Origin: an uncultured virus (IMG/VR IMGVR_UViG_3300037467_001416)
Taxonomy: Duplodnaviria > Heunggongvirae > Uroviricota > Caudoviricetes
IMG/VR virus record: IMGVR_UViG_3300037467_001416
Strand: one strand, 5' to 3'
Length of the DNA: 64,000 bases
Shown one piece after another: positions 18,106-56,451 of this stretch (position 1 is the stretch's first letter; the number at the start of each line of letters is the position of its first letter). The notes beneath the pieces are model-generated. The model searched no databases and was not told the DNA's origin. It saw only the letters and a program-made list of their open reading frames with translations. Position numbers and translations under genes: made by a program.

Positions 18106-18368
18106 GGACGAGAGGAGAGTCGCAGGAAGAAGGTCGCCAGATCGTTCTGATTGGCTTCAGCGAGGAGTGGCATCCCTATCGCCGGACGATCACGAACATC
18201 TATCAGTTGAGTAAGAGCGATCGCTACGACTACTACTTCTGGAAGAGCCTCATACGAGAGCAGAACGAGAGGACGATGGTCACGAGCACAGATCGCCTGA
18301 GAGAGACGCTCGCCGACGGACGCCTCCGGTGGAGCAATCCCGGCTTGGCGGGCGAGGGCCACGACTGA
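18102..18368 (+). CDS. Hypothetical protein
   Basis: GTGA overlap with the upstream stop; GGAGG RBS. Confidence 0.5.
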   Translation: MRTRGESQEEGRQIVLIGFSEEWHPYRRTITNIYQLSKSDRYDYYFWKSLIREQNERTMVTSTDRLRETLADGRLRWSNPGLAGEGHD

Positions 18369-18403
18369 ATACTACATTTGCAGGCAAGCAAAGGAGATCT
18401 GCA

Positions 18404-18685
18404 ATGCGCGTCACTCGTCACAGCACCGGCCTTCTGGGCCTCGTCGCCGTCGTCGCTCTGTCGGCTGGCTTCCTCATGGGCTCACAGCTCCAGCCCGCTC
18501 CGCTCAACAGCGAGCTCGCCGACGCTCAGGTCGTCGCGCAGGATCGCGACGTGCGTTGGGTTGCCTACGGCTGCGGAGACGACAACGCCACGCTGCTCAC
18601 GCGCGAGATGCCGAACGTCATGGAATGTCGTCAGGTTCGTCGGCTCAGCGAGATCGCAGAGTTCCCCGTTCCTCCTCGGCAGTGA
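18404..18685 (+). CDS. Membrane-anchored hypothetical protein
   Basis: AAGGAG RBS; LLGLVAVVALSAGFLMG hydrophobic helix. Confidence 0.6.
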   Translation: MRVTRHSTGLLGLVAVVALSAGFLMGSQLQPAPLNSELADAQVVAQDRDVRWVAYGCGDDNATLLTREMPNVMECRQVRRLSEIAEFPVPPRQ

Positions 18686-18715
18686 GGTCGCCGGACGTCG
18701 TCGTTTGACGGGATG

Positions 18716-18802
18716 GATCTGATAAGGGATCTGGATCACGATCTGGATCTGGACGAAGATCACGCTACAAACGTAGCGCCGATCAGGATCTTGACGAAGA
18801 TC
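18716..18802. repeat. GATC array (9 sites in 87 bp, mostly 6-bp phased)
   Basis: GATC at 18716, 18728, 18734, 18740, 18746, 18758, 18781, 18787, 18799. Confidence 0.9.
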
Positions 18803-19010
18803 TGGTCGTGTCGCTCCACACTCCTGCTCCAAGGCGTGGTACCTTGGCCTCTGTAACGCCTTGGCGCGTAAAACACTCAGTTTGGCGCAAAAGCGCCTTG
18901 GCGGGCGCGCCTGGCGCAAATGCCATGTTGCCATGTTGCCATGCTGCGCGCATATGTAATGCCGCCGCTGGCAATGCCGCCAAGCGGCCTAACGCAAAGG
19001 CAAACACAAC

Positions 19011-19532
19011 ATGGCACGTAACAACAACAACACCGCCAACACCGCCAACAATGCCGCGCCCGTAAAGGTGGCGCCCATGCTGCGCGCCGCCGCTATTATT
19101 GGGCGCGCGGGCATTGCCGCCGCGCCAGCGGTTGCGGCAAAGCTTGGCAATGCGCCAGCTAGCGCCAAGCGCTACGGCGCGGCTGTTAACAGCCTAACGC
19201 CTAGCTTTGCCAACGCTACCTTTACGCTAACGGCGCTAGGCAAGGCGGCTGTTGGCGTAGCGGGCGGCATTGGGCGCAACGGCCAAGCAACGGCTATGGG
19301 TTTAACAGCCGTTGCGCTTGCCAACGCAGCCAACGGCGGCACTAGCGCAACGGGCGCGGCCATTGTTGCCGCCATACTTGGCAACCCGCAGCTTATGGCC
19401 GCAATGGGCGCAACCAAGGCGCTAGGCGTGCACGTAACGCCTAACAGCGCAACAGCGGCCAAATGGGCGCAAGGTTACGTTAACGGGCTTTGCCGCCCAC
19501 AGCATGGCCTAGCTAGCAAGGCGCTAGCCTAG
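19011..19532 (+). CDS. Basic Ala-rich protein with no Asp/Glu (173 aa)
   Basis: Intact ORF; leader CCTAACGCAAAGG-N10-ATG; TTGCCA-N17-CATATG promoter candidate at 18928-18956; hairpin after the stop. Confidence 0.75.
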   Translation: MARNNNNTANTANNAAPVKVAPMLRAAAIIGRAGIAAAPAVAAKLGNAPASAKRYGAAVNSLTPSFANATFTLTALGKAAVGVAGGIGRNGQATAMGLTAVALANAANGGTSATGAAIVAAILGNPQLMAAMGATKALGVHVTPNSATAAKWAQGYVNGLCRPQHGLASKALA

Positions 19533-19600
19533 CCTAACGGGCGCGGCGGCAATGGTTGCCGCCGCGCCAACCCGCCACCTAACGCAAAGGTAACAAACCT

Positions 19601-19834
19601 ATGTTTACGCCAACCCAAGCCCAACCCGCCGCCATGCCGCGCCAAGCCAGTTACATGCGCGCCGCCCTTTGGCACTATGCGCCCGCGCCCTATGCGCCGC
19701 GCCGCTACGGCCAAGCGCGCAGCATGGCCGCGCAGCTTGCCAATTATAGCCCAAAGCTGCGCGCCGCTTACTTGGCGCGGCAATGGGCGCGCATTGCTAA
19801 CGGCGTTGCGCCGCATTGGCCGCGCGCCCGCTAA
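19601..19834 (+). CDS. Basic aromatic-rich protein with no Asp/Glu (77 aa)
   Basis: Same leader CCTAACGCAAAGG-N10-ATG; followed by a 13-bp hairpin. Confidence 0.65.
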   Translation: MFTPTQAQPAAMPRQASYMRAALWHYAPAPYAPRRYGQARSMAAQLANYSPKLRAAYLARQWARIANGVAPHWPRAR

Positions 19835-19857
19835 ACGCGCGCCAAGCCATGCCAACG

Positions 19858-19894
19858 TGCCGCCCGCTACATGGTAGCGGGCGGCATTGCTTTG
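19858..19894 (+). terminator. Terminator-like hairpin closing the island operon
   Basis: TGCCGCCCGCTAC-ATG-GTAGCGGGCGGCA followed by TTGCTTTG. Confidence 0.6.
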
Positions 19895-20059
19895 CGCCCT
19901 AGCAGGCGTTTGCGGGCGGCTACGGCCAAGGCGCTATGGTACCTTGGCCCCATATACGCCCGCCCACCCACGCGGGCCTCAGTGAGCGCAATCTTAAATT
20001 CTCGACTCGAAAATTCGAAATATATTGTCAGTCTCTTCTCGCCGTGCTACCGCTGTCGG

Positions 20060-20635
20060 ATGCGAATCCTCGTAGCTTGTGAGTTCTCCGGCATAGTTCG
20101 CGACGCCTTCCTCTCCAGAGGCCACGACGCCTGGAGCTGTGACCTGTCACCGACGGAGTCTCCCGGACCCCACATCCAGAACGACGTCCTCAACCATCTC
20201 AACGACTCCTGGGATCTCATGATCGCCCATCCGCCGTGCACCTATCTCTGCTCGGCCGGATACCATCGTCGTCTCAAGGACCCGACCCGCATCGCCAAGA
20301 CCCGCGACGCCATCCAATTCTTCCTCGCCCTCTGGAACGCTCCCATCCAGCGCATCTGCATAGAGAATCCGCCCGGAGTCATACGACGATTCACGAACAT
20401 CCCTCATCATCAGACGATTCATCCCTGGCAGTTCGGCGAGCCCTACGCCAAGACATTCACTCTGCGCCTCAAGAACCTGAACCCTCTCCGTCACACCCGC
20501 TACATCCCTCCACCCTACGTCAATCGCGACGAGCTCGGTCGCGACCCAACCCCAGAATCTATCGACCGCTGGAAGATTCGCTCACGCTTCTTTCCAGGCA
20601 TCGCAGAGGCGATGGCAGATCGTTGGGGATCCTAG
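20060..20635 (+). CDS. Phage-type short DNA (cytosine-5) methyltransferase-like protein
   Basis: MRILVACEFSG (motif I-like), DLMIAHPPC (catalytic PC), CIENP (motif VI), GIAEAMA (motif X-like). Confidence 0.75.
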   Translation: MRILVACEFSGIVRDAFLSRGHDAWSCDLSPTESPGPHIQNDVLNHLNDSWDLMIAHPPCTYLCSAGYHRRLKDPTRIAKTRDAIQFFLALWNAPIQRICIENPPGVIRRFTNIPHHQTIHPWQFGEPYAKTFTLRLKNLNPLRHTRYIPPPYVNRDELGRDPTPESIDRWKIRSRFFPGIAEAMADRWGS

Positions 20636-20722
20636 CACCGCCGCGCAGTAGTCACTTGTCCCTCCGCCCACATCCGTGCTACTCCACCTCCGAACATATA
20701 CACTCGGCAGGAATCCTCCCAC

Positions 20723-22354
20723 GTGCCAGATCCAGCGACCTCCGCCTACGCTCGTACACAGAGGATCGGTACGCCGAGGCCCCACATCCCATACTCGCTC
20801 GCTCTTCCCGGCATTGAGATTCCGGTAAGCGCCGACTACTACAACAAATTCGACATGTGGTCCACCATCCGGGACTGCTACGACGGCGAGGCTACCATCA
20901 AGGCCGGGAGAGAGACCTACCTCCCAAAGCTAGCCGCTCACAAGGCCGACGAGTACGACGTCTATCGTCGGAGAGCCTACTTCTACAACGCCGTGCGGCG
21001 CACCCATCGCGGACTCATGGGCTCGATCTTCCGCAAGCCTGTCGAGATCACTCTCCCAGACGCGATGAAGAGCAAGATCAAGCTCGGGCGCATCACGCAG
21101 GACGCCAAGCCCTTCGCAGAGTTCTGCCGGACCCTCGTTCACGAGGTACTCCTCACAGGACGATTCGGTGTGTTGGCGGACTTCAAGGGTTCCAACTGGC
21201 AGTCGCCGTATCTCGCCGGTTATCTCGCAGAGAACGTCTTCTCGTGGCGCACTCGGGAGTGGCAGGATCGGGAGATCGTCGATCGCGTTGTGTTGCTCGA
21301 GCAGGAGCAGATGACGACGGAGTACGCCTCCGAGACTCAGCTCCTGGTTAGAGTTCTCCGGCTGGACGAGGTGAACGGTAAGCTCGTCTACTCGCAGACG
21401 GAGATTCGCCCCTCGATCACCGACGCTAATCCCGACAAGCCAATGATCAGGCAGGTGCCGATCTCGGTTCGCGGCGGAAGGCAGCTCGACTACATTCCGT
21501 TCGTATTCGTGAACGCGACGAACACGTCCTATCAGATCGGTCCCGCGCCGCTGGAGGACATCGCCACCATCAATATCTCGCACTACCAGAGCACCGCGCA
21601 CCTGGAGCACGGACGATTCTACGCGGGGATGCCGACTTACGTCACCTCCGGTCCTGGAGGAGGTGAGCCGGGTCTTCCCAACGGATTGTCGGATCCGAGT
21701 CCTCTCACGGTTGGTCCGAGCAACGTCTGGGAGCTTGAGGAGAACTCCAAGGCTTGGTTGTTGGAGTTCACAGGTCACGGGCTCACCTTCCTCGAGAATG
21801 CGGTGGACTCCAAGCAGCTTCAGATGCAGTCGCTGGGCGGGCGTCTGATCAGCTCCACGCGTCGCGCAGCAGCGCTCAGCTCCGAGGCGTGGCAGCTCAT
21901 GGAGACGGGCGACGAGGCCACGCTGATGGACGTCGCGCTCACCGCCGACTACGCCATGTCCACCGCTGTCGCGTACATGGGCGACATCATGGGGCTGGTG
22001 CCGGATCTAGAGGATCACGGCGTCCTCGTGGAGTTCAACAAGGAGTTCGTCAGCTCCGAGCTCACAGGTCGCGAGCTGAGAGCACTCCAGGCTCTGCGCG
22101 AGCGTGGTCACATCCCCGAGGACGTGATGTACTACGCGCTTCGCGAGGTCGGCGTCATCCCGATCGAGTACACGCTCGAGGACTTCAAGAAGCTCATGGG
22201 ACAGAAGGATCAGCAGTACGAGCCTCCCGCCGCGCCAGCCTCGGGAGGTCTGGACACCGGTCCCGCCGGAAGTCAGCCGGGAGTGAGGCCGCAGCCGAAG
22301 CCGTCGCCCGCCAACGCGCCACCGACTCCACGCAACGCTCCGCCGGAGGGATGA
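20723..22354 (+). CDS. Portal protein (DUF4055-like)
   Basis: 543 aa; YLPK...Y..RAYFYNAVRRT..GLMGSIFRKP, GRFGVLADF, IPFVF, PLEDIATINISHYQSTA motifs; first gene of the head module. Confidence 0.85.
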   Translation: MPDPATSAYARTQRIGTPRPHIPYSLALPGIEIPVSADYYNKFDMWSTIRDCYDGEATIKAGRETYLPKLAAHKADEYDVYRRRAYFYNAVRRTHRGLMGSIFRKPVEITLPDAMKSKIKLGRITQDAKPFAEFCRTLVHEVLLTGRFGVLADFKGSNWQSPYLAGYLAENVFSWRTREWQDREIVDRVVLLEQEQMTTEYASETQLLVRVLRLDEVNGKLVYSQTEIRPSITDANPDKPMIRQVPISVRGGRQLDYIPFVFVNATNTSYQIGPAPLEDIATINISHYQSTAHLEHGRFYAGMPTYVTSGPGGGEPGLPNGLSDPSPLTVGPSNVWELEENSKAWLLEFTGHGLTFLENAVDSKQLQMQSLGGRLISSTRRAAALSSEAWQLMETGDEATLMDVALTADYAMSTAVAYMGDIMGLVPDLEDHGVLVEFNKEFVSSELTGRELRALQALRERGHIPEDVMYYALREVGVIPIEYTLEDFKKLMGQKDQQYEPPAAPASGGLDTGPAGSQPGVRPQPKPSPANAPPTPRNAPPEG

Positions 22355-35450: not shown

Positions 35451-35470
35451 GATAGACTGAAAGAGAAGGA

Positions 35471-35884
35471 ATGCTCATGGCTGGTTTTCTAGATCGCTAC
35501 AACACGGACCGGAGTCTCGAAGAGTCCGGTGTCTGGGTAGATTTCGGCGACGGTCTCAAGGTACAGGTTCGTCGGCTCACCTCCAAGGCTTCGCGCGAGT
35601 ATCGCCGCAAGCTCGAGAAGCCTTACATCGCACAGTTTCGTAATCGCGAGATGCCCGACTCTCTTCAGGAGCAGCTCCTGAATAAGCAGGTCGCCGGCTC
35701 CGTCATTGTCGGCTGGGAGGGTGTTCCGAACCCAGACAATCCCAAGGAAGAGTTCCCATTCAGCGAAGAGAATGCTCTCGCAATGGTCGAGCGCTTTCCG
35801 GACTTCCGTGACGACGTCCTCACGGCGGCGATGGAACGCACCACGTTCGAGAAGGAACAGCGGGAGAACGCTAGAAAAAACTAG
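35471..35884 (+). CDS. Tail assembly chaperone (lambda G-like)
   Basis: LEESGVWVDFG...IVGWEGV...FSEENA; ends in slippery A-AAA-AAC before TAG. Confidence 0.8.
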   Translation: MLMAGFLDRYNTDRSLEESGVWVDFGDGLKVQVRRLTSKASREYRRKLEKPYIAQFRNREMPDSLQEQLLNKQVAGSVIVGWEGVPNPDNPKEEFPFSEENALAMVERFPDFRDDVLTAAMERTTFEKEQRENARKN

Positions 35885-36264
35885 AGGAGCTCCTCAAGTG
35901 GGAGCTCAAGCCCAAGCCTGACTTGGAAAAGATGGAGGAAGACATACTGGCGAGAGGTGAGGACCCCTCGCTCTTCCCCGTACTAAACAGCAAGCCTGAG
36001 ATGTTCCGGGACTTGCAGTGGATATGGGAAGGTTTTATGTGTCTATCTACTTCTCGTCAGTACGGCATGGGCTCCCCCCAACCTATCTCCGTCAGCGACA
36101 TCACAGCCTATTGTCTCTTCCGCGATATTCACGACGCAGACGACAGAGATGACTTCATGTACCACGTCCAGCGACTCGACGCGGTCTTCATGAAGGACTG
36201 GGGTACGAAACAGAAGAATAAGGATAATACTCAGGGTCAACCTCCGGCGAGGCTTGGTGGCTAA
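35881..36264 (+). CDS. Tail assembly chaperone frameshift extension (T-like)
   Basis: -1 frame open from 35881; WEGFMCLSTSRQYGMG.PQPI...LDAVF. Confidence 0.75.
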   Translation, partial: LEELLKWELKPKPDLEKMEEDILARGEDPSLFPVLNSKPEMFRDLQWIWEGFMCLSTSRQYGMGSPQPISVSDITAYCLFRDIHDADDRDDFMYHVQRLDAVFMKDWGTKQKNKDNTQGQPPARLGG

Positions 36265-39200
36265 TGAGTACCTATCAGCTAGAAATTGATGGTAGTGGTG
36301 CAGAAGCCGGTGCAGATCGCATCGTCAAGAGCTTCGACGCGATTAAGGCTGCTGCAGATCGTATGGAGGGTGGCGTCAGTGCCGCTGCGAAGAAGGCTTC
36401 GTCTTCCTTCGCCTCTATGCAGCAGAACGCTCGTCCCGTCAGCGAGGCGGCGATTAACTCCATCAAGTCGTTGAGTGACGCGTTTCGTAACTTCCGTGCC
36501 CCGAGTGACGCTGCTGTCCGTAACGCGATCATCTTTCTTCAGGGTCTCAAGTCGGTTGGCTCTCTCAATCTCGGTCGTGTCACCGGCCTCGCCGGATTGC
36601 TCGCCGCTATTTCAGGCTATCGTGGTCCTAGCGCCACGGCTGGAAAGAATACTCTCTCTGTACTTAATGCTCTGAGATTTGCGAGTAGCTATTCCTCACC
36701 TCGAGGTCTGGCGGGAACTCTCGCTGCACTTTCAGCCTTCCGTGGTCCTACCGCTGCGGCTGGCCGCAACGTCATGAGTCTCCTGGCAGCCCTAAACAGC
36801 TTCAAAGCTGGACCTGGAATGGCTGCGACGGTTCGCGCACTTGAGAAGATTACTCTAGCGGCCAACGCTGCGCGGGGCTCTCTCAACTCACTGAAGGGAT
36901 CTGCACCCTCCAGCATCAACATCCGTGCGAATACTAAGCAGGCTGAGCAGGGCTTCATGAGCCTCGCTAAGACGAATGGTCTTTTACAAACGGCTCTCTA
37001 CAGGACACAGACTGCCTGGAACGCTCTCGGCGGTATCCTCGCGGGGCGAGTTGTTGTCAACGCAATCAACGACATCATCCAGATCAAAGCGCAGCTAGAA
37101 GCTGCCACAGGATCTGCTAAGGAGGCAGCATATCAGTTCGACTTTCTAATCGGTTTCGCTAACAAACTAGGACTAGAAATAGTCTCTACGGCTAAGTCAT
37201 ACGGGTTCTTCCTCGGTTCCATCAAGGGAACCAGCATGACGATGGCAGAAGCTAAGGACGTTTTCACCGGTTTCAGCACTGCCGCGCGCGCACTTCAGCT
37301 CAGCACGGCTGACGTAGACGGCGTGTTTCGCGCCCTTGGACAGATGATGTCCAAAGGTAAGATTCAGGCAGAAGAACTTCGCGGTCAGCTAGGTGATCGC
37401 CTTCCCGGTGCGTTTACTCGTTTTGCTGTTGCACTTAAGATGGTCAAGCCGGGTGAGCTTGATCAAGCGCTCAAGAAAGGTGCCGTCAGCGGAGAGAAGA
37501 TGAAGAGAGCGATTATTGATGTCGCTAATTCTCTTCAGGTAGAATTCGCAGGCTCTGCTGAGAAGATGTCTAACACGATTGAAGGTGCCTTCAATCGTCT
37601 GCGTAATTCTTTTACGATGGCTGCTTCCGGTCTCGGATCTAGCGGTCTGAATGATGGCATAATCAAAATCACAGACTCGCTTAGAAAACTCCTAGAGTCG
37701 AAGGCTCTCGGAACAGCGATGTCGGCTCTGGGCTCAGCCTTCAAGTTTCTAGGAGACAACATTAATCTTGTCGGCGCAATAATCCTCGGTTCTGCGATAA
37801 CCTCCACAATCAAATGGCTTTCTACGCTTACTCTCGCTCAGGGAGCTGTCGGCGCTCTGACTGCTGTGATGAAGCCTTCCATGACTACTATGGAAGCGAT
37901 GGCTGCTGGTCTAGGGAGTATCGGTACTCAAGGCACTTCTGTCATAGGAGTCTTTAAATCACTCTGGGCGCTCCTTCTCGCCAATCCATGGATCGCAGTT
38001 GCAGCAGCCATTACGGCAGCGATCGTTATTCTCAGTCAGTTCAATGATAAGATCGAGGAGGCTAATGATCTAGTTCGCCAGTCCGCTAACGCGAGTAACA
38101 TCGCGGCAGACGCAGAGACTGTGATGGAGCAGAAGCTAGCGGCTACTAACGGAACTCTCACCATTCAAGCACAGAAGTTGAGGGAAGTTATTTCTCTCAA
38201 GCTACAAGCTAATATGGCGACACTTTCTTCCGGTGTTGACGTACGACCGAGCGGTTGGACGATGGGAGGCCACACCCTATTTTCTGCTCCCGCTAGTGAT
38301 TACAACAAGATCAACTTTGAGGGTGGTAGAGTCACGGTCGGCGGTACTATCATTAAAGATCCGACTACTGCGAGAGCGCTCCGAAATGTTCTGACTCCTA
38401 CGGGAGAGTTGCAGGCACCCCAAAATTCTAATCAAGCTGCCATTATGTACAAGAACCTCGGTGTTCTTGAGATGATCCAGAAGGCAGAGGGGGATAACTC
38501 TCCTCTCAAAGAAATTACCGGCAAGATGTCGGCTTATCTAGACAATGCCGCTCAGCTAGGTCGCCTAGGAACTAACAGATTTTCTGACTTCGCTAAGAAT
38601 GTAGATCGCAACGCTACTATTCTTCACTCGCAGCGTACTCCCGGAATTATGGGAGGCGCTCCCGCACAAACCGGAAAGAAGAAGAAACACGGCAAAACCG
38701 CAGCCGAAAAAGCTCAGGACGACATCAATGCCGCTATCGATCAGGCGATGAACGGCATCACTGATCTTGAGACTCGCGCTAAGTCAGTCTCAGAGAGTAT
38801 TTCGGCCCTTCTGAGCGGCTCCTTCGATAAGGCGGGCGCAGCGGCGCATAACGCAGCCGTCGACCAGGAGAAGAGCTTCGAGGACGCTATAAAGGGTCCT
38901 GAGAATAAAATTAAGGGCGTGTTGCAGCTTGCCCACCAGCTAGGCCTCGACGTCAGCGGTAAGACGGTCGCAGAACAATATCAGTCGGCCAAGGAAGCTG
39001 TGATTGGCTACATGGAGCAACGACAGAAGGCCTCTGCGGAGGCTAAGGCTGATCAGAAGGTTGCTACCGATATCGTAGGTCTTCGTGCCGACAACGAGGC
39101 CCAGAAAGGCTACATTGACCTTCTCAACGTCAAGGGTACGACGATGGCTGCGGCCAATCGTCAACTCGAGATACAGAACATGCTCGAGGGGACGAGCCTA

Positions 39201-41777
39201 GAAAATCGCCCCAAGCTGAGAGCTGAGCTTGAGAAAGAACTCGCGCTACGTGATCAGTTAAAGCGGTCTCTCGAGGCCACCAACGCACAGCGCGACTTCG
39301 AGAATCAGCAAGCCCTCGACAGAGCACTTTCACCGATGTATAAGTCGGGAATGAAGTCCGAGGATATTGACTACTACAAGGAGATGCTTCAGTACCGTCA
39401 GGAGCTGATTGACAATGACTGGACGGGTGACGAACTTCGCAAGCAGGTCAACTTAAAAGCCGCGACTCTGAACGAGGCTCGCGCAATGAAGCAGCTCACC
39501 GATCAGTACGAGAAAGCCAACCAGACCGCGGCTGATATGGCAGACGCAATCGTGGGTGGTTTCCGGGATGGGATTGACGCTGGGAACAACTTCCTTGACA
39601 TCTTTAAGAATATCTTCAAGCAGCTCAGCAAAATCATCCTGGACTTTGTTCTCTACAATCCGATGAAGCAGTGGCTTCAGCAATCCTTGTCGCAGGTCTT
39701 GGCTCCTCAGGCAACGGCTGGCTTCGGAGGTATCGGTACTCCTGGAACTGGAACTACCAATTCTTACGCCAGTGGTCAGGGTCTAATAGGCTCCGTCGTC
39801 AATAGTGTGATGGGGAACGTCCTCAACGGCGGCGGTCTCTCACCTCCAGGCACCGTAGCAGGAGGTCGCTTACGTTATGATCAAAACGGCGATCTCGTCG
39901 CAAACAGTGCTGGTGCTGGTTCTACTGTTGGTGACGCTATTATCGTCACGGGATCTCGTCTAGGTGGTTCTCGCGTAGATACCAACGCACCTATCCCGGC
40001 AGCGGGCGGCTCTCGCCAACTGAGCATGTTTACGAACATCACCAACACTTTGAGCGCTGCTAAAGACGGTATGAAAGCATTTGGTAATTTCCTGAAGACA
40101 GGAAAGGGTGCTTCGGCCGGCATCAGCGGTGCCATCGGCGCTGCCGGAACCGCTTTCGCAGCCTATCAGATCGGCAGCCAAATCGGTAAGAGTGTCACCA
40201 AGGCTCTAGGTATCAAAGGTCGCGCTGGAAACGTCGTCAGTGGGGCGATGGGCGGTGCGGCGGCGGGTTTCGTCCTCGGAGGCCCGGTAGGTGCCGCCGT
40301 CGGCGCAGTCATCGGCGGCGTAATAGGTCTCTTTAAGAAAGTTCCTAAGCTTCCGAGCTCATTCGGTAATGTCCGGGTGGACAACACCGGAACAGCTCGC
40401 GTGGGAGCTACTGGAACGTATGGTCCCGCAGACGCTGCGATCGGTAAAAGCGCAGCGAGTTCAGGAGCTTCGCTCTTCAATCAGTTCGCCCTTCAGTACG
40501 GGGCTCAGCTAAAGCCCGGCAACTTCGGAACCTTTGGTCAGGCTACCTGGAAGATCCCGGGACCTAACAACAACGATCAGTACTTCTACTCCTTGACCGG
40601 CAACATGAGTAAGGGTAAACCGACCGGGGTCATGGGAAGAGACTGGTTCCGCTCGACTGACCAGTCTGAGGTTCAGGCGTGGGCGCTGATCCACCAAGCT
40701 AATCGCGGGATGATCACAGGTCTGACCGACACCCTGAAGACGATCTTTAAAAATACGAAAGCCTCCAACATGGATCAGCTTCAGTCTGATCTTCAGATTG
40801 GTCAGGCTTACGACGAGTTCGTCAAGGGTTCCTTCGCTCTTCCTGACGTACTTACAAAGATCCGCGATCTTAACGAGGCCTTCTATAAGCTGAAGCAACA
40901 GGCCGCGTCGCTAGGCTTGAGCGAGGACAAACTTTCTAAGGCTCGCGGTCGTCTGATGGATCAGATGAAGTCTGACTTCAACTACCAGATCAATCAGGGC
41001 ATCCTCGGCTACACGAATCCTGCTCAGGCAGCGTACAATGATCTAGTCAAGGAGTACCACGACGCAGTCCAGACGGCTATGGCTGTCGGTGGGGATCTCA
41101 ACGCAGTCGAAGACTATTATGGTCGCAAACGGGCTGATCTCGCTAAGAAGTGGGCTGATACAGCGACTAACGGTCTCGTCAGTGCTGCCAAGGATCTATA
41201 TGATCAGCTGACAGCTTCTTCCAGCTCGCCTCTCAATGCGACAACAATCCTCGGCAACTCGCGAGATCTTTACTCGGGTCTAATTGGTCAATTCAACGTA
41301 GGAGACTTCTCCAACGTTGATAAGCTGTCGACGTATGCCCAGAATTATCTAGACGCCGCGCGCACGATGTACGGCTCTAGTACCGACTATTTCGACATCT
41401 TCAAGCAAGTCACAGATCAACTGGCGCTCTACGAGTCCCCAGGTGGCTCTGGAATTCCGGGCGGTGTCGGTACTGCTCCCGATCTCCCGTCGCTGGACGA
41501 CATGGTTCAAGAGATCAACCAGCAGTCGCTGGAGATGATCGACGCGATGGGTATCGTCGGTCAGGCGGTGGTGGAGGGTAGCGTCAACATCGTAGACGCC
41601 ATCAATAATCTCGCTATTGCCCTAGGTCAGAAGATTCCGGTCACGACACCTACTGGCCCGACGTCTGGTGGCACCGGCGTCGGTAGTACGGGTGGAACTG
41701 GAGGCACTAGTTCTGTCTATGGCTCGAGCGGCCCGAGCACGAGTCTTGTAGATCGCAACAACGTGAAGATGCTGTAG
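36264..41777 (+). CDS. Tape measure protein
   Basis: 1837 aa; ALGQMMSKGKIQAEELRGQLGDRLPGA tape-measure motif; Ala/Gly-rich helical. Confidence 0.92.
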   Translation: MSTYQLEIDGSGAEAGADRIVKSFDAIKAAADRMEGGVSAAAKKASSSFASMQQNARPVSEAAINSIKSLSDAFRNFRAPSDAAVRNAIIFLQGLKSVGSLNLGRVTGLAGLLAAISGYRGPSATAGKNTLSVLNALRFASSYSSPRGLAGTLAALSAFRGPTAAAGRNVMSLLAALNSFKAGPGMAATVRALEKITLAANAARGSLNSLKGSAPSSINIRANTKQAEQGFMSLAKTNGLLQTALYRTQTAWNALGGILAGRVVVNAINDIIQIKAQLEAATGSAKEAAYQFDFLIGFANKLGLEIVSTAKSYGFFLGSIKGTSMTMAEAKDVFTGFSTAARALQLSTADVDGVFRALGQMMSKGKIQAEELRGQLGDRLPGAFTRFAVALKMVKPGELDQALKKGAVSGEKMKRAIIDVANSLQVEFAGSAEKMSNTIEGAFNRLRNSFTMAASGLGSSGLNDGIIKITDSLRKLLESKALGTAMSALGSAFKFLGDNINLVGAIILGSAITSTIKWLSTLTLAQGAVGALTAVMKPSMTTMEAMAAGLGSIGTQGTSVIGVFKSLWALLLANPWIAVAAAITAAIVILSQFNDKIEEANDLVRQSANASNIAADAETVMEQKLAATNGTLTIQAQKLREVISLKLQANMATLSSGVDVRPSGWTMGGHTLFSAPASDYNKINFEGGRVTVGGTIIKDPTTARALRNVLTPTGELQAPQNSNQAAIMYKNLGVLEMIQKAEGDNSPLKEITGKMSAYLDNAAQLGRLGTNRFSDFAKNVDRNATILHSQRTPGIMGGAPAQTGKKKKHGKTAAEKAQDDINAAIDQAMNGITDLETRAKSVSESISALLSGSFDKAGAAAHNAAVDQEKSFEDAIKGPENKIKGVLQLAHQLGLDVSGKTVAEQYQSAKEAVIGYMEQRQKASAEAKADQKVATDIVGLRADNEAQKGYIDLLNVKGTTMAAANRQLEIQNMLEGTSLENRPKLRAELEKELALRDQLKRSLEATNAQRDFENQQALDRALSPMYKSGMKSEDIDYYKEMLQYRQELIDNDWTGDELRKQVNLKAATLNEARAMKQLTDQYEKANQTAADMADAIVGGFRDGIDAGNNFLDIFKNIFKQLSKIILDFVLYNPMKQWLQQSLSQVLAPQATAGFGGIGTPGTGTTNSYASGQGLIGSVVNSVMGNVLNGGGLSPPGTVAGGRLRYDQNGDLVANSAGAGSTVGDAIIVTGSRLGGSRVDTNAPIPAAGGSRQLSMFTNITNTLSAAKDGMKAFGNFLKTGKGASAGISGAIGAAGTAFAAYQIGSQIGKSVTKALGIKGRAGNVVSGAMGGAAAGFVLGGPVGAAVGAVIGGVIGLFKKVPKLPSSFGNVRVDNTGTARVGATGTYGPADAAIGKSAASSGASLFNQFALQYGAQLKPGNFGTFGQATWKIPGPNNNDQYFYSLTGNMSKGKPTGVMGRDWFRSTDQSEVQAWALIHQANRGMITGLTDTLKTIFKNTKASNMDQLQSDLQIGQAYDEFVKGSFALPDVLTKIRDLNEAFYKLKQQAASLGLSEDKLSKARGRLMDQMKSDFNYQINQGILGYTNPAQAAYNDLVKEYHDAVQTAMAVGGDLNAVEDYYGRKRADLAKKWADTATNGLVSAAKDLYDQLTASSSSPLNATTILGNSRDLYSGLIGQFNVGDFSNVDKLSTYAQNYLDAARTMYGSSTDYFDIFKQVTDQLALYESPGGSGIPGGVGTAPDLPSLDDMVQEINQQSLEMIDAMGIVGQAVVEGSVNIVDAINNLAIALGQKIPVTTPTGPTSGGTGVGSTGGTGGTSSVYGSSGPSTSLVDRNNVKML

Positions 41778-49839: not shown

Positions 49840-51572
49840 CGATACAAGTTGTCTTTGAGTCAGACGAGAAGAAAGCGTGGCTAGACGGTCGGGTTCCACC
49901 GCACGTCTTTAACGCTCTCTCAGAGCTTCCAGGCCGCAAGCGGTACGTACAGGGTAAGCCTTTCATTGAGCTTTCGAGGAGCAATCTAGAGTTCCTCGAC
50001 ACGCGTCTAGAGGGCGTCACTTGGCGCGGCCCCGCTGCTACACTGGTGGAACAATTTCGGCGTATGCGCGAGCAGGAGCGTGAGACTCGTAACGCAAAGT
50101 GGATTGAGCCTGTTGGCTTCGAGTTCCCGTATAAGCACAAGCCCTATCAGCATCAACTCAAGGCTAACATTCTCGCCAGAGGGAAGATCGCCTTCGGGTA
50201 CTTCATGGAGCAGGGCACCGGAAAGACCAAGACCCTGTTGGACGACGCCGCCGACATTTTTCTCAACGGTGGTGAGAACGGCAAGATCGACACGTTATTG
50301 ATCGTCGCCCCCAACGGCGTCCATGCTCAGTGGATAAACGAACAAGTTCCGGAACATTTAAGCCCCTCTGTGCCTTGGGCGGGCGGGTACACCGTTGCAG
50401 CCCCAACCCATGAAGAGGCTCTCCGACTGTCCAAAGCGCGGTATTTTAAGGATGGTCTCAGGATCATTGCAATCCACATCGACATGATGAGTCACAAGAG
50501 CGGTGAGGAGCTCCTGCAAGAGCTTCTTCTCTCTTCTAGAGCCATGCTGGTCGTGGACGAGAGTAGCCGCATAAAAGACTCCAGCTCAAAGAGAACTAAG
50601 ACTCTTCTGAAGCTAGGTAAGCTAGCCAAGTATCGACGCATTCTCACAGGAACTCCAATCTCCCAGGGCGTGGAGGATCTTTATTCACAGTTCTACTTCC
50701 TGGACCCTCATATCCTGGGCTACAGCAGTTTCTACGCCTTCCGGAATCACTTCTGTCGCATGGGCGGTTTTCAGAACAAGAAGATCGTCGGTTACGTAAA
50801 TGAGGAAGAACTTAAACGCAAGATCGACTCGTACACGTACCGAGTTCTCAAGGAGGATTGCCTGGATCTTCCTGCCAAGAACTTCATTCGTGTAGAAGTT
50901 CCGTTCACTGAAGAGCAGAGTCGCGTATATGCTCAGATGAAGAAGGACTTCTTCCTCGACCTTGACGCCGGTATTCTCACCGCGCGTCTCGCCATCACTC
51001 GTCTCATTCGTCTTCAGCAACTCATAGGTGGGTTCATCCACAAGAGAGCGAAGAAGGACGAGAACGGAAAGATAGTTGATCCTGAACTGTATCAGGAGTT
51101 CCCGAATCGTCGAGTGGAGCGCACCGTAGAGATTATCAAGGAAGCTCGCGGGAAGGTTATCGTCTGGATTAAGTTCGAGGGTGACTATCGTCTTCTGAGC
51201 AAGGCACTAACCGAGGCTGGCATCTCCTGGATAGACTACGTTGGTCGGACCAAAGACAAGTTGACGAATCTTAAGAAGTTTCAGACAGACGACAATATCA
51301 AGGTCTTTCTCTCCACTCCTAAGTCCGGGGGTATTGGTCTCAACCTGACTGTCGCCAGCGAGGTCATTTGGTACAGCCGAGACTTCTCCCTTGAGAACGA
51401 ACTGCAAGCCAACGACAGATGCCATCGCATCGGACAACACTTTCCCGTGAACTATCACTATCTTATCACCCCGCGCTCGGTGGACGAGAGAATCGACAAG
51501 GTACTCAAGTCCAAGGGCGCGATCGCCGAGAATCTAATTGACATAAGGGATCTCTTTGCCGATGACGAGTAA
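49836..51572 (+). CDS. SF2 (SNF2-like) helicase
   Basis: FMEQGTGKT (Walker A), VVDESS (Walker B), ILTGTP, GGIGLNL, QANDRCHRIGQ. Confidence 0.9.
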   Translation: MTIQVVFESDEKKAWLDGRVPPHVFNALSELPGRKRYVQGKPFIELSRSNLEFLDTRLEGVTWRGPAATLVEQFRRMREQERETRNAKWIEPVGFEFPYKHKPYQHQLKANILARGKIAFGYFMEQGTGKTKTLLDDAADIFLNGGENGKIDTLLIVAPNGVHAQWINEQVPEHLSPSVPWAGGYTVAAPTHEEALRLSKARYFKDGLRIIAIHIDMMSHKSGEELLQELLLSSRAMLVVDESSRIKDSSSKRTKTLLKLGKLAKYRRILTGTPISQGVEDLYSQFYFLDPHILGYSSFYAFRNHFCRMGGFQNKKIVGYVNEEELKRKIDSYTYRVLKEDCLDLPAKNFIRVEVPFTEEQSRVYAQMKKDFFLDLDAGILTARLAITRLIRLQQLIGGFIHKRAKKDENGKIVDPELYQEFPNRRVERTVEIIKEARGKVIVWIKFEGDYRLLSKALTEAGISWIDYVGRTKDKLTNLKKFQTDDNIKVFLSTPKSGGIGLNLTVASEVIWYSRDFSLENELQANDRCHRIGQHFPVNYHYLITPRSVDERIDKVLKSKGAIAENLIDIRDLFADDE

Positions 51573-51921
51573 GGTCTTTGTCCTACAGGCCGTCCGGTTT
51601 CAGCCCGACGTCAGCCCCGCCGCCGTATATGGCGAGATCCGCTTTGTGCTCTCTGCTGGAGATCGGACCTCGGCTAATCCTGAGCTCTCCATAGAGCGTC
51701 TCAGGAGAGCACTCTCGGAGTTTGATCCCCGAACGGACTTCATCGTCTGGGCGGGTGGAGATCCTCTCAGCGCCATTGTGACCGGCATGGTGATGCTTGA
51801 CCTAGGTATCACGAAGTTCCGCTACTTGCGCTTTGAGAAAAACCGCAATACAAAGCATGGAGAACCCGTAACGGGTTTCTATTCTCCCGTAGAAGTCAGG
51901 CTGGAAGAGGAACAAGACTAA
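51562..51921 (+). CDS. Hypothetical protein
   Basis: DVSPAAVYGEI...DFIVWAGGDP; replication-module context. Confidence 0.6.
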   Translation: MTSKVFVLQAVRFQPDVSPAAVYGEIRFVLSAGDRTSANPELSIERLRRALSEFDPRTDFIVWAGGDPLSAIVTGMVMLDLGITKFRYLRFEKNRNTKHGEPVTGFYSPVEVRLEEEQD

Positions 51922-52487
51922 TGGTCGAAGAGACGCAGACGGAGCAGAGTGACGTAGACTTCTTCGAGGAGGCCGACACCAGTACCGGCTCTGAGCGCTT
52001 TAAGGCTCATATTACCAATCTCGCGAGAGAGTATCGTCTTCTCGAGGGAGACATCGCCGAGCTACAGAATAAAATCAAAGATCTCACTCGCCGGAAGGTC
52101 GAGATAGAGACACAGAAGTTGCCCGAGTTGCTGAAGCAGGCAGGCGTCCGCGAGATCACTACGCTGGAGGGTCTCAAGGTCTCAACCAAATACGTCGTCG
52201 GATCAATTCCGCCACAGTCCAAGGAGCAAGCCTACGAGTGGCTCGACTCGCACGGACATAGCGATATTATCAAGCGTAATCTAGCCCTTCAGTTCAGCAA
52301 GGGTGACACGAAGCAGGCCGAGTTAGCACGTGAAACGCTCGCCAAGATGGGCTTCGACCCTACCATCAAGCTGGACGTGCACCCTCAAACCTTTATGGCA
52401 TTCGCGCGCGAGCAGATTCAGAATGGCGTCATGCTCCCACTTGAGAAGTGGGGAGTCTGGTTTGGCGATAAGGCAGTCATTAAGTAA
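51921..52487 (+). CDS. Replication-module protein with coiled coil
   Basis: LPELL...G...AYEWL..HGH.DIIK...VHPQT..AF pattern seen next to phage SSB genes. Confidence 0.6.
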   Translation: MVEETQTEQSDVDFFEEADTSTGSERFKAHITNLAREYRLLEGDIAELQNKIKDLTRRKVEIETQKLPELLKQAGVREITTLEGLKVSTKYVVGSIPPQSKEQAYEWLDSHGHSDIIKRNLALQFSKGDTKQAELARETLAKMGFDPTIKLDVHPQTFMAFAREQIQNGVMLPLEKWGVWFGDKAVIK

Positions 52488-52587
52488 GTCTGCCGAGTTA
52501 TTCTAGAGTAAAATATCCCTTGCGTTGTGAGTTAACGCGCTTATAGTGAAGCGTCTGGTGGCAAGCCAGTGAACAGAGGAGAGCCTA

Positions 52588-53451
52588 ATGGCCGAAGCAA
52601 AGAAGAAAGCTGAAGAAGAAAAGAGTGAGGCACCTGCGGCTGGCGGTACCAATCTCACAACGACCAAGAACGAGTCAACCGATTTGGTTGCGGCGGACGA
52701 CGACTTCTTCGCAGAAGCCGGTGCGGGTCTGGACGATTTCCAGCAGTCCGACTTTCTCATCCCGTATGTCCGCATCCTGCAAGCGCTCTCGAAGGAGCTT
52801 CAGCGTGGTCACGCTAAGTTTCTTCCTAACGCCGGTCAGGGCATGTTCGTCAACTCTGCGACGCGGAAGCTCATCAACGGCGAGACGGGTTTTCTCGCCG
52901 TTCCGGTCGGCTTTAGTCACCGATACATGGCGTGGCGACCGAATAACGCCGGTCCTGCCTACGACATGGGTGACGATCCCTCGAAGTTCAACGCGGCGAC
53001 GCCGGACGACAAGGGTAAGCGCTACGACGAGCAGGGCAATGAGCTCACCGATGCTCTTCAGTACTTCGTCGTCCTGGTGAATCCGGAGACGCAGGAATGG
53101 GAGGCAGCGGTTCTGAACTTCTCTGGGGTTCAGGCTCGCAAGGGTCGCGGGTGGGCAACCACGATCAACAATCGCATGGAGCGATTTCCGGTAGGCCACG
53201 CCAAGGCCGGGACTCTCTTCCGTCCTGCGATGTGGTTCTACTCGTACAAGATTACCACGATTCCAGAGTCCAACGACAAGGGTTCGTGGTACGGGTTCCT
53301 CATCGAGGAGGGGCCGAAGGTGAAGGATCTCGCAAACGGGCGCGAGATTTTCACTGCCGCCAGCGAGCTGCGTAAGCGGATCGATGCCGGCGAAGTCAAG
53401 GGTGACATGGAGCATCCCGACGACGAGCCCGGAGACGAGCAGGCGTTCTAG
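52588..53451 (+). CDS. Single-stranded DNA-binding-like protein
   Basis: DFLIPYVRILQALS...ESNDKGSWYG; acidic C-tail ending in aromatic DEPGDEQAF. Confidence 0.65.
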   Translation: MAEAKKKAEEEKSEAPAAGGTNLTTTKNESTDLVAADDDFFAEAGAGLDDFQQSDFLIPYVRILQALSKELQRGHAKFLPNAGQGMFVNSATRKLINGETGFLAVPVGFSHRYMAWRPNNAGPAYDMGDDPSKFNAATPDDKGKRYDEQGNELTDALQYFVVLVNPETQEWEAAVLNFSGVQARKGRGWATTINNRMERFPVGHAKAGTLFRPAMWFYSYKITTIPESNDKGSWYGFLIEEGPKVKDLANGREIFTAASELRKRIDAGEVKGDMEHPDDEPGDEQAF

Positions 53452-54207: not shown

Positions 54208-55101
54208 ATGAACCAAGAGATCTACGAGACTTTCGTTCACTACCTGAACGAGCGCGAAGCTATCCGGCAGAAGAGAGTTGCAGGTGAGCCAGGTCCCTGG
54301 ACCACAGATCCAATTCTCTCGCGCTACAAGTTCACAAATATTCTCCGCAAGCACGATCGCACTACGCAGTGGCTGATCCGGAATTGGTATAATCCTAATC
54401 GTGGAAATGTTCCGAAACAAGTCATGGCACTCAACTGTGCCATCGCGCGTTACTTCGGCAGCATTGAGTTTCTAGAAGACGTTGGTTTTCAATACGAGTG
54501 GAACCCAGATTTTCTCATACGTCGCGCCGGCGAGCGTCTCGCTGCCGGGAAGAAAGTCTTCACCGGAGCGTACATCATAACGAACGCGGGCAGCACAGAT
54601 CCTAAGCAGATCGTCGTCGTGTCGCAGTTTCTCACTCCGTTTCGGATGCGTCTGGACTCTGTCATCGGCATGGCTGAGCGCACGAATCGGTGGCAGGAGG
54701 TCTGTGAGCTCTTGCAGGGAATGCCCGGAATTGGTCCCTTCATGGCGAAGGAGATCGCACTGGACATGATGCTGACGCCTGTGCTCGAGAATGCTACCGA
54801 CAAGCTGACGTGGTCACCGGCTGGCCCCGGAGCTATCCGCGGTCTCAATCGTCTTCACGATCGTCCGACGCAGGCCGGGATGCCTCAGCAGAGGGCTCAG
54901 CACAAGATGCAGGCTCTTCTCGGTCGTCTCAGCATGGATCGTGCGTTCAAGGACTACATGCCTGAGATTGGTGTTCACTACGGAGTCACCGATGTTCAGT
55001 TCTCTCTGTGCGAACTGGACAAGTATCTCCGTGTGAAGAATGGCGAGGGTCGTCCACGCTCCGGCTACGACTGGCGTAAGGCAAAGCCTATAGTCCCCTG
55101 A
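54208..55101 (+). CDS. aGPT-PPlase1 / 5-hmdU DNA kinase helical-domain family protein
   Basis: EREAIRQKR..G..GPWTTDPILSRYKFTNILRKHDRTT, FTGAYII, GIGPFMA, GPGAIRGL, LCELDKYLR. Confidence 0.8.
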   Translation: MNQEIYETFVHYLNEREAIRQKRVAGEPGPWTTDPILSRYKFTNILRKHDRTTQWLIRNWYNPNRGNVPKQVMALNCAIARYFGSIEFLEDVGFQYEWNPDFLIRRAGERLAAGKKVFTGAYIITNAGSTDPKQIVVVSQFLTPFRMRLDSVIGMAERTNRWQEVCELLQGMPGIGPFMAKEIALDMMLTPVLENATDKLTWSPAGPGAIRGLNRLHDRPTQAGMPQQRAQHKMQALLGRLSMDRAFKDYMPEIGVHYGVTDVQFSLCELDKYLRVKNGEGRPRSGYDWRKAKPIVP

Positions 55102-55143: not shown

Positions 55144-55434
55144 GTGAAGCTCAGATTAGGCCCCGGACAACGCGACATACATCTCGAGGGACGGGACGGG
55201 GAGCTTCTCGTCGGTAGAGACGAGAGTGGTAAATTCGTCAACAAACTTCATCTCACGGATGCCGAGTTCTCCATGGGAGCCTCGAGATTTCCCATTCTGC
55301 GCCTTGACGTGGAGATGATCGGCTACGAGATCGAGATAGACGCCATGGAGGAAGACGTTGTCGTAGTCCTTCACCGTCATGGCATTACTCGCATAGAAGG
55401 AATTAAGAATGCAGATCTTCATCCCGACGCGTGA
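55144..55434 (+). CDS. Hypothetical protein in the modification cluster
   Basis: AGGAGG RBS; 96 aa. Confidence 0.5.
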   Translation: MKLRLGPGQRDIHLEGRDGELLVGRDESGKFVNKLHLTDAEFSMGASRFPILRLDVEMIGYEIEIDAMEEDVVVVLHRHGITRIEGIKNADLHPDA

Positions 55435-56221
55435 TCGTGTCAACGCTCAATTTACATGGGACAACCTGACGCCGGCTCTGCGGCAATGCACAACGCTGGT
55501 ATGCCCCGCGGAGGAGGTCACCGAGCATCTCGAGCGCTCTCGAAACGCAGTGGCGCGGCCCCCGGTAGGGCTGGCTGCGGTGCGGCAATGGATTGTCGAC
55601 GAGCTTGCTAGACAGGGTGAGCCGGTCATCATGCTAGACGACGATCTAGCGTTTTTCGTTCGCAAGGATCCATCCGCGCACAATCTACGTCCCGCCGGTG
55701 CCGACGTGGAGCGTATCTTTTCGAGACTTCATATTCTCGTGGCTCACAACGATTACGTCCATTCAGGATTATCGCCTAGGCAGGGAAATAATTGGGCGTA
55801 TCCTGCTACGACGCTCACTGTGGAGCGCATGAACGCGGTCCACTGCGTCTTACCTGAGGCGCTGCGGCACTACGGCATTCGCTACGACGACGTTGACATG
55901 ATGGAGGACTACCATGTCGTTCTTTCGCTTTTTGAGAAAGGTGAGAAAAACGCCGTCATTACGGATGCCGCCTGGGATCAGTGCAAGGGATCAGGAGCTC
56001 CTGGAGGCTTCAGCCACTACCGAACTAGCGAGACTCAAGCGGCGGCGGCTGAGCGTCTTGCGGAGCTCCACCCGAAAGTCGTCAAAGTCGTAGAAAAGAC
56101 ACCCAAGACGGGCAGCGGCGGCTTTTCGGGAACACGCAAGGACGTGCGCGTCCAGTGGAAGAAAGCGTACCAAACCCGCGGTCGTGAGTTCATCAATCCT
56201 AGCTTCCGGAGGGGTGCGTGA
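55409..56221 (+). CDS. GT-A glycosyltransferase, TAGT/GREB1/base-J glucosyltransferase-like
   Basis: IFIPTRDR, RQWI, IMLDDDL (DxD), EDYHVVLSL...G..N, GGFSHYRT, VRVQWKKA. Confidence 0.75.
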   Translation: MQIFIPTRDRVNAQFTWDNLTPALRQCTTLVCPAEEVTEHLERSRNAVARPPVGLAAVRQWIVDELARQGEPVIMLDDDLAFFVRKDPSAHNLRPAGADVERIFSRLHILVAHNDYVHSGLSPRQGNNWAYPATTLTVERMNAVHCVLPEALRHYGIRYDDVDMMEDYHVVLSLFEKGEKNAVITDAAWDQCKGSGAPGGFSHYRTSETQAAAAERLAELHPKVVKVVEKTPKTGSGGFSGTRKDVRVQWKKAYQTRGREFINPSFRRGA

Positions 56222-56451
56222 GAGATAAGCAAGGTCGCAGGTACGCCCGTCTGGCTGAGATCAAGGCAGGCTCCTACATCCGCGTCGACGGAGACTTTGA
56301 CTGCATGAAGAAAAACTCTCTGCGGAAGGTCTTTAGAGACCGCGAGGGGTATTACGTCGTGTGTTCTCGCGGTCGCCATCATCTGGACGGGCAGTCAGAC
56401 GGACACGGTAATCTCATCGGCATGTATCAGGAAGAGACTGAGAATGTATAG
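56218..56451 (+). CDS. Small hypothetical protein
   Basis: DGDFDCM...YYVVCSRGRHHLDGQ; coupled overlaps. Confidence 0.55.
   Translation: MRDKQGRRYARLAEIKAGSYIRVDGDFDCMKKNSLRKVFRDREGYYVVCSRGRHHLDGQSDGHGNLIGMYQEETENV

Follow-up and report, generated by a model that had tools for sequence, protein, structure and literature searches.

An uncultured tailed virus of soil (Duplodnaviria; Heunggongvirae; Uroviricota; Caudoviricetes) is represented in IMG/VR by the record IMGVR_UViG_3300037467_001416, of which a stretch of 64,000 nucleotides (nt), called the window here, was analysed. Upstream of the portal gene, the window contains an island of about 1.1 kb in which the dinucleotide GA, and with it TC, the same step on the opposite strand, does not occur at all (Table 1). 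The island carries two open reading frames (ORFs), p173 and p77, the products of which contain neither aspartate (Asp) nor glutamate (Glu). Each ORF is preceded by a GA-free leader and followed by a hairpin, and a promoter-like element lies in front of the first.

Table 1. Positions of features in the window, counted from its first letter
Feature	Position	Strand	Particulars
Membrane-protein-like gene	18329-18685
GATC repeat array	18716-18802		9 GATC sites in 84 bp
GA/TC-free island	18879-19978	both	no GA, no TC; single such run in the window, 1,102 bp
Promoter-like element (putative)	18928-18958	+	TTGCCA (18928-18933), 19-nt spacer, TATGTA (18953-18958)
Leader 13-mer CCTAACGCAAAGG, copy 1	18988-19000	+	GA-free Shine-Dalgarno-like AAAGG; ends 10 nt before p173 ATG
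p173 gene	19011-19532	+	173 aa, ATG to stop without interruption; 13 Lys+Arg and 29% Ala, acid-free
Hairpin after p173 gene	19540-19568	+	13-bp stem, 3-nt loop, -29.2 kcal/mol, z -3.86
Leader 13-mer CCTAACGCAAAGG, copy 2	19578-19590	+	ends 10 nt before p77 ATG
p77 gene	19601-19834	+	77 aa, ATG to stop without interruption; 11 Lys+Arg, much Ala, Pro, Tyr and Trp, acid-free
Hairpin after p77 gene	19857-19887	+	14-bp stem, -31.6 kcal/mol, z -3.71, then TTGCTTTGCG
Right island edge	19936-19985	+	ATGGTACC...CCCATATAC...GGGCC/TCAGTGA (slash, island end); first TC of the flank within conserved TCAGT
Promoter-like TTGTCA-N-GTGCTAC	20025-20050	+	just outside the island, upstream of the methyltransferase-like gene
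C5-methyltransferase-like gene	~20057-20635		phrog_757
Second TTGTC-N-GTGCTAC copy	20656-20682	+	upstream of the portal gene
Portal gene	20723-22354
Tape-measure gene	36264-41777
Three ORFs matching Pam3 gp32, gp33, gp34 families	51556-53451
5-hydroxymethyldeoxyuridine (5-hmdU) DNA kinase	54208-55101		PF18723 HMUDK_hel, E 1.3e-45, 156 bits vs cut-off 25
TAGT-like transferase	55409-56221		PF20691 TAGT E 6.2e-12, phrog_842 E 1.6e-40; candidate group-transfer enzyme for phosphorylated hmU
Thymidylate-synthase homologue	56444-57481		counted as dUMP hydroxymethylase; PF00303 E 5.1e-20, phrog_5131 E 2.7e-93, matches that do not tell dUMP from dCMP
PolA gene	58522-60588

The gap between successive TC steps runs from 18877 to 19979 (1,102 bp) and that between successive GA steps from 18799 to 19984 (1,185 bp), leaving 18800-19983 free of GA. 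Elsewhere in the window, GA gaps reach 116 bp at most and TC gaps 99 bp, and the next-longest run free of both is 54 bp. With GA or TC occurring genome-wide at a density of 0.168 per bp (one every 6 bp), ln P of a run as long as the island is approximately -202. Outside the island, no dinucleotide is as over-represented as GA/TC, whose odds ratio there is 1.37 (G002, a diverged relative of 91,890 bp with terminal repeats, has 1.38), and 38.7% of T precede C. GATC sites outside 18800-19984 number 460 vs 237 expected from base composition; a second-order Markov model accounts for this count (457), indicating that the excess resides in GA/TC and not in GATC itself.

The purge acts on DNA rather than on the proteins. 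When expected numbers were derived from the codon usage of the phage itself, synonymous codons bearing GA or TC (ATC, TTC, GTC, CTC, TCN, GGA, CGA and AGA) should have occurred 25.7 times in p173 and 8.3 times in p77, and GA or TC across codon junctions 19.7 and 9.2 times, respectively; none was seen in any of these classes. The 344 non-coding bases of the island, for which 57.8 GA or TC steps are expected, contain none either. Because synonymous codons, codon junctions and non-coding DNA are all purged, the constraint operates at the DNA level. A purge that is strand-symmetric and extends over coding as well as non-coding DNA suggests that whatever reads the step does so on duplex DNA. An earlier sequence-only reading of this locus had proposed that the proteins surrendered Asp and Glu to a constraint at the DNA level, a proposal backed by these counts and by remote homologues that do carry Asp/Glu (see below).

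GA/TC-free islands of about 1.0-1.45 kb surround the genes in all 13 related loci that were fetched, among which there are at least seven different sequences; six of the islands hold one TC inside, and one is cut by a contig end. G002 has exactly one island, of 1,070 bp (79,745-80,813), vs a next-longest run of 54 bp. A 73-kb record (G001) is 100% identical to the window across the 1.3 kb compared, and contigs with window DNA were found in 11 soil or rhizosphere metagenome runs. A search of viral contigs with the leader pattern CCTAACGCAAAGGYAA gave 40 loci (L001-L040), none of which has a GA/TC-free run longer than 72 bp; these are chance matches. Scans of viral contigs with a single protein, either p173 or the portal protein, gave no match.

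Some related islands differ in detail. The lone TC in the L045 island (position 10237) is formed at the junction of GGT (Gly) and CAG (Gln) codons in the conserved p173 motif G-Q-x-T-x-M-G. Lone TC steps are also present at 3265 in L051 and 5228 in L052, which belong to a second, separate lineage, and their offset suggests that they occupy the same p173 site as in L045. The second island gene of L051 and L052 (5427-5669 in L052) encodes an acid-free protein of 80 aa that differs from p77; homology to p77 was considered for the L052 gene and is not demonstrable (hhalign probability 3.9%). In L049, an extra acid-free island ORF of 56 aa (1261-1431) is hydrophobic in its C-terminal half.

The length of the ORFs does not speak for gene status in this island, because TGA cannot occur in GA-free DNA: an ORF of at least 173 aa arises in 14% of 2,000 dinucleotide-preserving shuffles, and in 6.3% when only ATG starts are allowed. 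GC content by codon position is flat (0.65/0.61/0.65). The substitution pattern is informative. Between the window and L043, differences at codon positions 1/2/3 number 48/44/84 in p173 and 12/11/27 in p77, and between the window and a second diverged lineage they number 47/46/89 and 15/13/28, respectively. Third positions thus vary about twice as much as first and second positions, which shows that both frames are under purifying selection as proteins. Database searches identified 80 homologues of p173 (52-100% identity, 132-195 aa) and 26 of p77 (66-83 aa), with start and stop conserved. The p173 family has the invariant motifs R54-Y55, TxMG, TKAxGxH and GYVNGLCR, and the p77 family has the conserved core motif HYAPAPYAPRRYG.

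The signals around the genes are also shared among relatives. The identical 13-mer that the sequence-only reading had described 10 nt before each ATG is present at both places. As evidence for genes, its fixed offset and the similar AAAGG/AAGG leader of relatives carry weight; identity of the two copies alone is not unique evidence, because the island is internally repetitive, with 13 repeated 13-mers vs a mean of 0.52 in 500 shuffles. Both leaders use AAAGG, and a GA-bearing GGAG/GAGG/AGGA core is present at 48 of the 93 other ORF starts in a crude gene list. A hairpin is found at the same place after the p173 gene in L043, L045, L046 and L047, and after the p77 gene in L043, L045 and L047, with differing sequences. 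The hexamer TTGCCA of the putative promoter is a GA-free variant of TTGACA, and comparable elements, TTGCCA...TATACA or TACATG, precede ORF1 of L043 and of L046; a simple scan with spacers of 16-18 nt did not flag the window element. The conserved families, the third-position substitutions and the GA-free leader and hairpin of each gene indicate that both ORFs are real genes of one unit, in agreement with the sequence-only reading. Judged from these sequence features, the island would be a self-contained transcription unit, comprising a promoter-like element, two genes with GA-free leaders and a hairpin after each, and selection would keep both of its strands clear of the GA/TC step.

Several repeats and pairings within and around the island were also noted. 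The 3' hairpin arms recur exactly within the p173 coding sequence, 400-600 nt upstream (19257-19272/19874-19889, 16 nt; 19114-19127/19556-19569, 14 nt), and these exact repeats are not conserved in L043. A long-range RNA pairing, 19071-19087/19715-19731, is common to the closest relative, L046, and is not found in L043; it was rejected as a structure and read as shared ancestry. A mobile element, suggested by the terminal direct repeat TGGTACCTTGGCC at 18837 and 19937, was dropped as a candidate, in that relatives keep the right copy only.

Neither product of the island genes has an acidic residue, as first noticed, and this property extends to their families. Asp and Glu are absent from all 26 p77 homologues and from 78 of the 80 p173 homologues, the two exceptions having one Glu each. 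A p173 profile search over 1.84 billion representatives retrieved 16 clusters, 14 of them new, and nine of these 14 again lack Asp and Glu. The acid-bearing remote homologues are P0113, P0115, P0117, P0119 and P0120, which have between 2 and 16 such residues (2, 5, 7, 13 and 16, the last of these in P0120). P0120 is related to the p173 family with an hhalign probability of 95.9% (E 5.9e-9, 112 columns), and its segment LTDKEA aligns with LGNPQL of the island family, an alignment that indicates single-base swaps of D to N and E to Q, as recoding predicts.

The expectation that homologues outside such islands regain Asp and Glu may fit these five proteins, whose DNA context was searched for and not found: scans of viral contigs with P0120 and P0117, and of genome contigs with P0119, gave nothing, and the cluster look-up led only to short metagenome contigs. 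In a tree of 20 family members, the Asp/Glu-bearing ones occupy three places with weak support, which is compatible with a single origin. A tblastn search with p173 against 50,697 cultured-phage records gave no match at E 0.01 or better. No paralogue of either protein that might serve as a normal twin is present in the four records inspected, in each of which both genes are single-copy, and no fused or longer form of p173 was found, although this is weak evidence.

p173 is predicted to be a well-folded globular protein. The AlphaFold2 model built on an 80-row alignment has a mean predicted local distance difference test score (pLDDT) of 93.3 and a predicted template-modelling score (pTM) of 0.86, with a globular core and residues 1-21 at low confidence. 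The p77 model reaches a pLDDT of 66.6 and a pTM of 0.40. Prediction of a p173-p77 complex scored 0.00, which is evidence neither way. In a VIA-align comparison with 48,161 chains, the p173 model reached Z 4.3 at most and matched no chain at Z of at least 5; the program warns that Z below 8 may reflect a mere common arrangement. Winged-helix DNA-binding domains (a bundle of three helices plus a beta wing) are frequent among the matches listed, on p173 residues ~90-173, a weak likeness with all Z at or below 4.3. The segment aligns with the MCM C-terminal winged helix, the PriA winged helix, the SAMD1/KAT6A winged helix, the DpnI C-terminal domain and the linker-histone globular domain over 55-85 residues, with a root-mean-square deviation of 2.3-3.5 A. 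p173 is strongly basic, and it is set apart from these domains by the lack of a sequence-family match and by a Z that stays below 5. Structure prediction and fold search, as proposed with the original observation, thus yielded a confident fold for p173 and no matching fold.

With 13 Lys+Arg, no acidic residue and a weak winged-helix likeness in its model, p173 is plausibly a nucleic-acid binder. Being basic, both proteins may bind DNA, as the sequence-only reading proposed, with protection of the incoming genome, transcription of modified DNA and blocking of a defence system as conceivable roles. The ESM Atlas gave only viral clusters and composition-like tape-measure matches at 0.89-0.91. A role of p173 as a small terminase or pac gene was considered and rejected: the large terminase of G002 lies at 35,469-36,905, 44 kb from the island, and has its own small upstream ORF. 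The window has no large terminase gene beside its portal gene.

The window also encodes a set of enzymes for thymine modification. The 5-hmdU DNA kinase, TAGT-like transferase and thymidylate-synthase homologue are accompanied by an HD hydrolase and a nucleotide kinase, and all adjoin PolA. The 5-hmdU DNA kinase is present in two of three relatives' records (G002 and G003), the third being a fragment judged 51% complete. In known phages with this chemistry, 5-hmdU is converted 'in sequence-specific contexts' (PMC8989533). The resistant restriction sites in M6, ViI and PhiW-14 have TG or TC in common (PMC6449724), and the modified base dapT of phage SH-Ab 15599 is located mainly at TG and less at TC (PMC13458397). 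Also documented are host nucleases that recognise a range of hypermodifications and act early, as well as inhibitors of these nucleases that phages carry (PMC12191111).

The explanation that we favour, at a probability of roughly 0.5, is that the thymine hypermodification of this phage is directed at TC and that the self-contained operon stays plain DNA. The phage would make 5-hmdU DNA and, in this clade, hypermodify thymine after replication where T precedes C. A cassette devoid of TC on either strand would then stay ordinary DNA without modification, both inside virions and within cells, and the modification state elsewhere would thus have no bearing on how it is expressed or how host or phage proteins recognise it. 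The GA-free promoter-like element, the ribosome-binding sites and the hairpins of the island would serve this cassette. Most speculatively, p173, perhaps through a winged-helix-like half, and p77 might be nucleic-acid-binding factors, acting for example right after injection. The functional part of this explanation, namely that p173 and p77 act on nucleic acid or on a host factor when modified DNA is unusable or attacked, is tentative.

A number of observations weigh against an island exempted from TC-directed thymine hypermodification. It is the purge alone that would reveal the TC specificity, and the phages characterised so far modify TG no less than TC (PMC6449724, PMC13458397), whereas TG is not depleted in the island (65 per 1,101 bp). 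Three cultured phages that bear a homologous kinase lack an island: in M6 no GA/TC-free run exceeds 51 bp, in PhiJL001 40 bp and in RHph_I72 39 bp, indicating that the modification pathway alone does not predict an island. The remaining phage genes, presumably including early ones, are rich in TC, and modified DNA is therefore evidently transcribed. In addition, a simple scan of the island detected no canonical sigma-70 promoter and no U-tract terminator. Neither p173 nor p77 has a match in Pfam, PHROGs or NCBIfam (single sequences) or among PDB chain sequences (profiles), and Foldseek searches of PDB and BFVD with the p173 model gave nothing at E 0.001 or better.

As a separate observation, Rhizobium phage RHph_I72 (MN988554.1, ~52,944-53,155) contains a 142-bp and an adjoining 71-bp stretch without AG/CT (genome density 0.115 per bp), within a 332-bp TA-free run and overlapping the hypothetical gene EVC26_074. 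Either a small island for a different dinucleotide or simple low-complexity sequence could account for this.

A possible but less convincing alternative is that some other enzyme reads the TC/GA step, be it a nuclease of the host or of the phage, a cytosine deaminase with a preference for TC, or a modification-sensing defence with a cue confined to this step, and that a cassette without targets survives or stays readable while other means protect the remaining genome. TC specificity occurs among deaminases and nucleases. A symmetric purge that includes non-coding DNA suits any duplex dinucleotide reader, and the lack of an island in the three kinase-bearing cultured phages suggests that a clade- or host-specific factor is needed; the early modification-sensing host nucleases and their phage inhibitors (PMC12191111) would be of the required type. 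However, neither the window nor G002 yielded such an enzyme, and this alternative leaves unexplained why a single operon is exempt while GA/TC is the top-enriched dinucleotide elsewhere.

On duplex DNA, a purge of GA and a purge of TC are indistinguishable, so the mark could in principle lie on the purine side, as a guanine or adenine modification aimed at GA, for example a 7-deazaguanine inserted by DpdA, with the island escaping it. The DpdA of Pseudomonas phage iggy offers a precedent, having a strict GA motif with 99.75% of the modified G in GA context (PMC10484667). This explanation is nevertheless improbable: TGT/DpdA (PF01702) was detected in none of the three relatives' records, including the 91,890-bp G002, whereas the control was positive in 14 of 14 genomes, and no queuosine-pathway family was found among the ORFs scanned, a scan that covered small ORFs in part.

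A constraint on RNA is more improbable still. The transcript would have to avoid GA and UC in order to escape an endoribonuclease, either a host toxin or a host-shutoff enzyme of the phage. The extension of the purge from the leader to the terminator hairpins fits this idea, as do ribosome-binding sites that avoid the GGAG/GAGG seen at about half of the other starts (48/93, see above). However, reverse-complement symmetry would force one RNA strand to shun two unrelated dinucleotides, and we know of no RNase with both GA and UC specificities. Moreover, the purge begins about 50 bp upstream of the promoter-like element and continues about 90 bp beyond the last hairpin, the transcript ends being predicted ones.

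Least probable of all is that the ORFs are not genes and that the island is a structural DNA element (an origin, packaging site or protein-binding array) with long ORFs owing to the exclusion of TGA, a notion that can draw on the 6-14% of shuffles with an ORF of at least 173 aa, the flat GC by codon position, the internal repeats and the GATC-rich repeat array just upstream, but is countered by the third-position substitution excess in both frames, the conservation of length, start and stop among the 80 and 26 homologues, motifs without variation (GYVNGLCR, for example), the pLDDT of 93.3 for p173, and the G002 large terminase, 44 kb off and with a small upstream ORF of its own.

The right edge of the island is sharply conserved: in all eight loci compared, it ends as ...GGTACC...CATATAC...CC/TCAGT. 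At the left edge, strand asymmetry is inconsistent among eight loci. Just past the right edge, a TTGTCA-N-GCTAC element is present in six of the eight loci, including L043, L045, L047 and L049; in the window, TTGTCA-N-GTGCTAC has two matches vs 0.14 expected. The C5-methyltransferase-like gene between the two copies is missing from G002, which has a single promoter-like copy and keeps the island, so this gene is not required for the island. From the arrangement of these copies, the gene looks like an insertion that brought or copied its own promoter.

Between the membrane-protein-like gene and the island, the GATC sites form an array built of GATCTGGA / CGAAGATC repeats. Repeats of a similar type, GATCTGGACGA(A/G)..., stand before the island in L043 and L046, and CAGATT or ACGGACGTAAACGC repeats are found there in other lineages. 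The array could serve as an operator, be origin-like or bind a protein. A comparison with Rfam over 18300-20700 gave no match at the gathering score, and no tRNA was found in the window.

Elsewhere, the window has the gene content of a tailed phage, with portal, scaffold, major head, tail tube and tape-measure proteins, and also encodes an SNF2 helicase, PolA and a 5'-3' exonuclease. The modification cluster is immediately preceded by three ORFs with matches to Pfam families that take their names from gp32, gp33 and gp34 of cyanophage Pam3, a phage that also carries a homologue of the 5-hmdU DNA kinase.

If the favoured explanation of a modification-exempt operon is true, the locus would represent a new genome organisation, in which a virus erases the motif of its own DNA-modifying enzyme in order to keep an island free of modification, and the context (TC) of an uncharacterised hypermodification pathway could be read from sequence. 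More generally, and doubtfully, phages with bulky context-specific thymine hypermodification might keep a 'pioneer' operon plain by deleting the modification context, thereby leaving it readable after injection or under nuclease attack. In this clade, p173 and p77 would then form a new class of proteins without acidic residues, which bind nucleic acid or act against defences and render the modified genome usable. The two proteins are candidates for the first functions needed by a hypermodified phage. A DNA-level constraint can also hold a protein family to eighteen of the twenty amino acids over long evolutionary times while a confidently predicted globular fold is retained (pLDDT 93.3 for p173), which bears on the protein alphabet and on protein design. 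The GA/TC-free signature is simple to search.

Avoidance of restriction sites and other short motifs by phages is a genome-wide, statistical phenomenon that concerns the 4-6-bp sites of host enzymes. The likeness to the window is that a short DNA word is removed so that a DNA-reading enzyme finds no target. The difference is that the window loses a dinucleotide completely in one 1.1-kb unit, at the cost of two amino acids, although the same dinucleotide is the top-enriched one elsewhere.

Among the closest systems are the phages with 5-hmdU hypermodification, namely Pseudomonas phage M6, Salmonella phage ViI, Delftia phage PhiW-14 and Acinetobacter phage SH-Ab 15599, which have the same enzyme set as the window, i.e., a thymidylate-synthase homologue, kinase, transferase, HD hydrolase and PolA (PMC8989533, PMC6449724, PMC13458397); the window 5-hmdU kinase is 35% identical to the matched M6 region over 95% of its length. 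These phages modify T in TG and/or TC, whereas the purge in the window concerns TC and not TG. M6 has no motif-free island (51 bp at the longest), and the accessible parts of the three articles report none for phages of this group. Phage iggy, with DpdA and dPreQ0, is similar in that a phage modification can target exactly the GA step, and different in that DpdA/TGT is missing from the three relatives' records; no GA-free region is mentioned for iggy in the accessible text (PMC10484667). Inhibitors of END nucleases in hypermodified phages (PMC12191111) are a precedent for small early proteins that block modification-sensing host nucleases, a link to p173 and p77 that is conceptual. Literature searches turned up no publication on motif-free islands or on phage proteins devoid of acidic residues. 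By analogy, the pioneer operon may be likened to an inverted CpG island, one that would be paid for by a reduced amino-acid alphabet.

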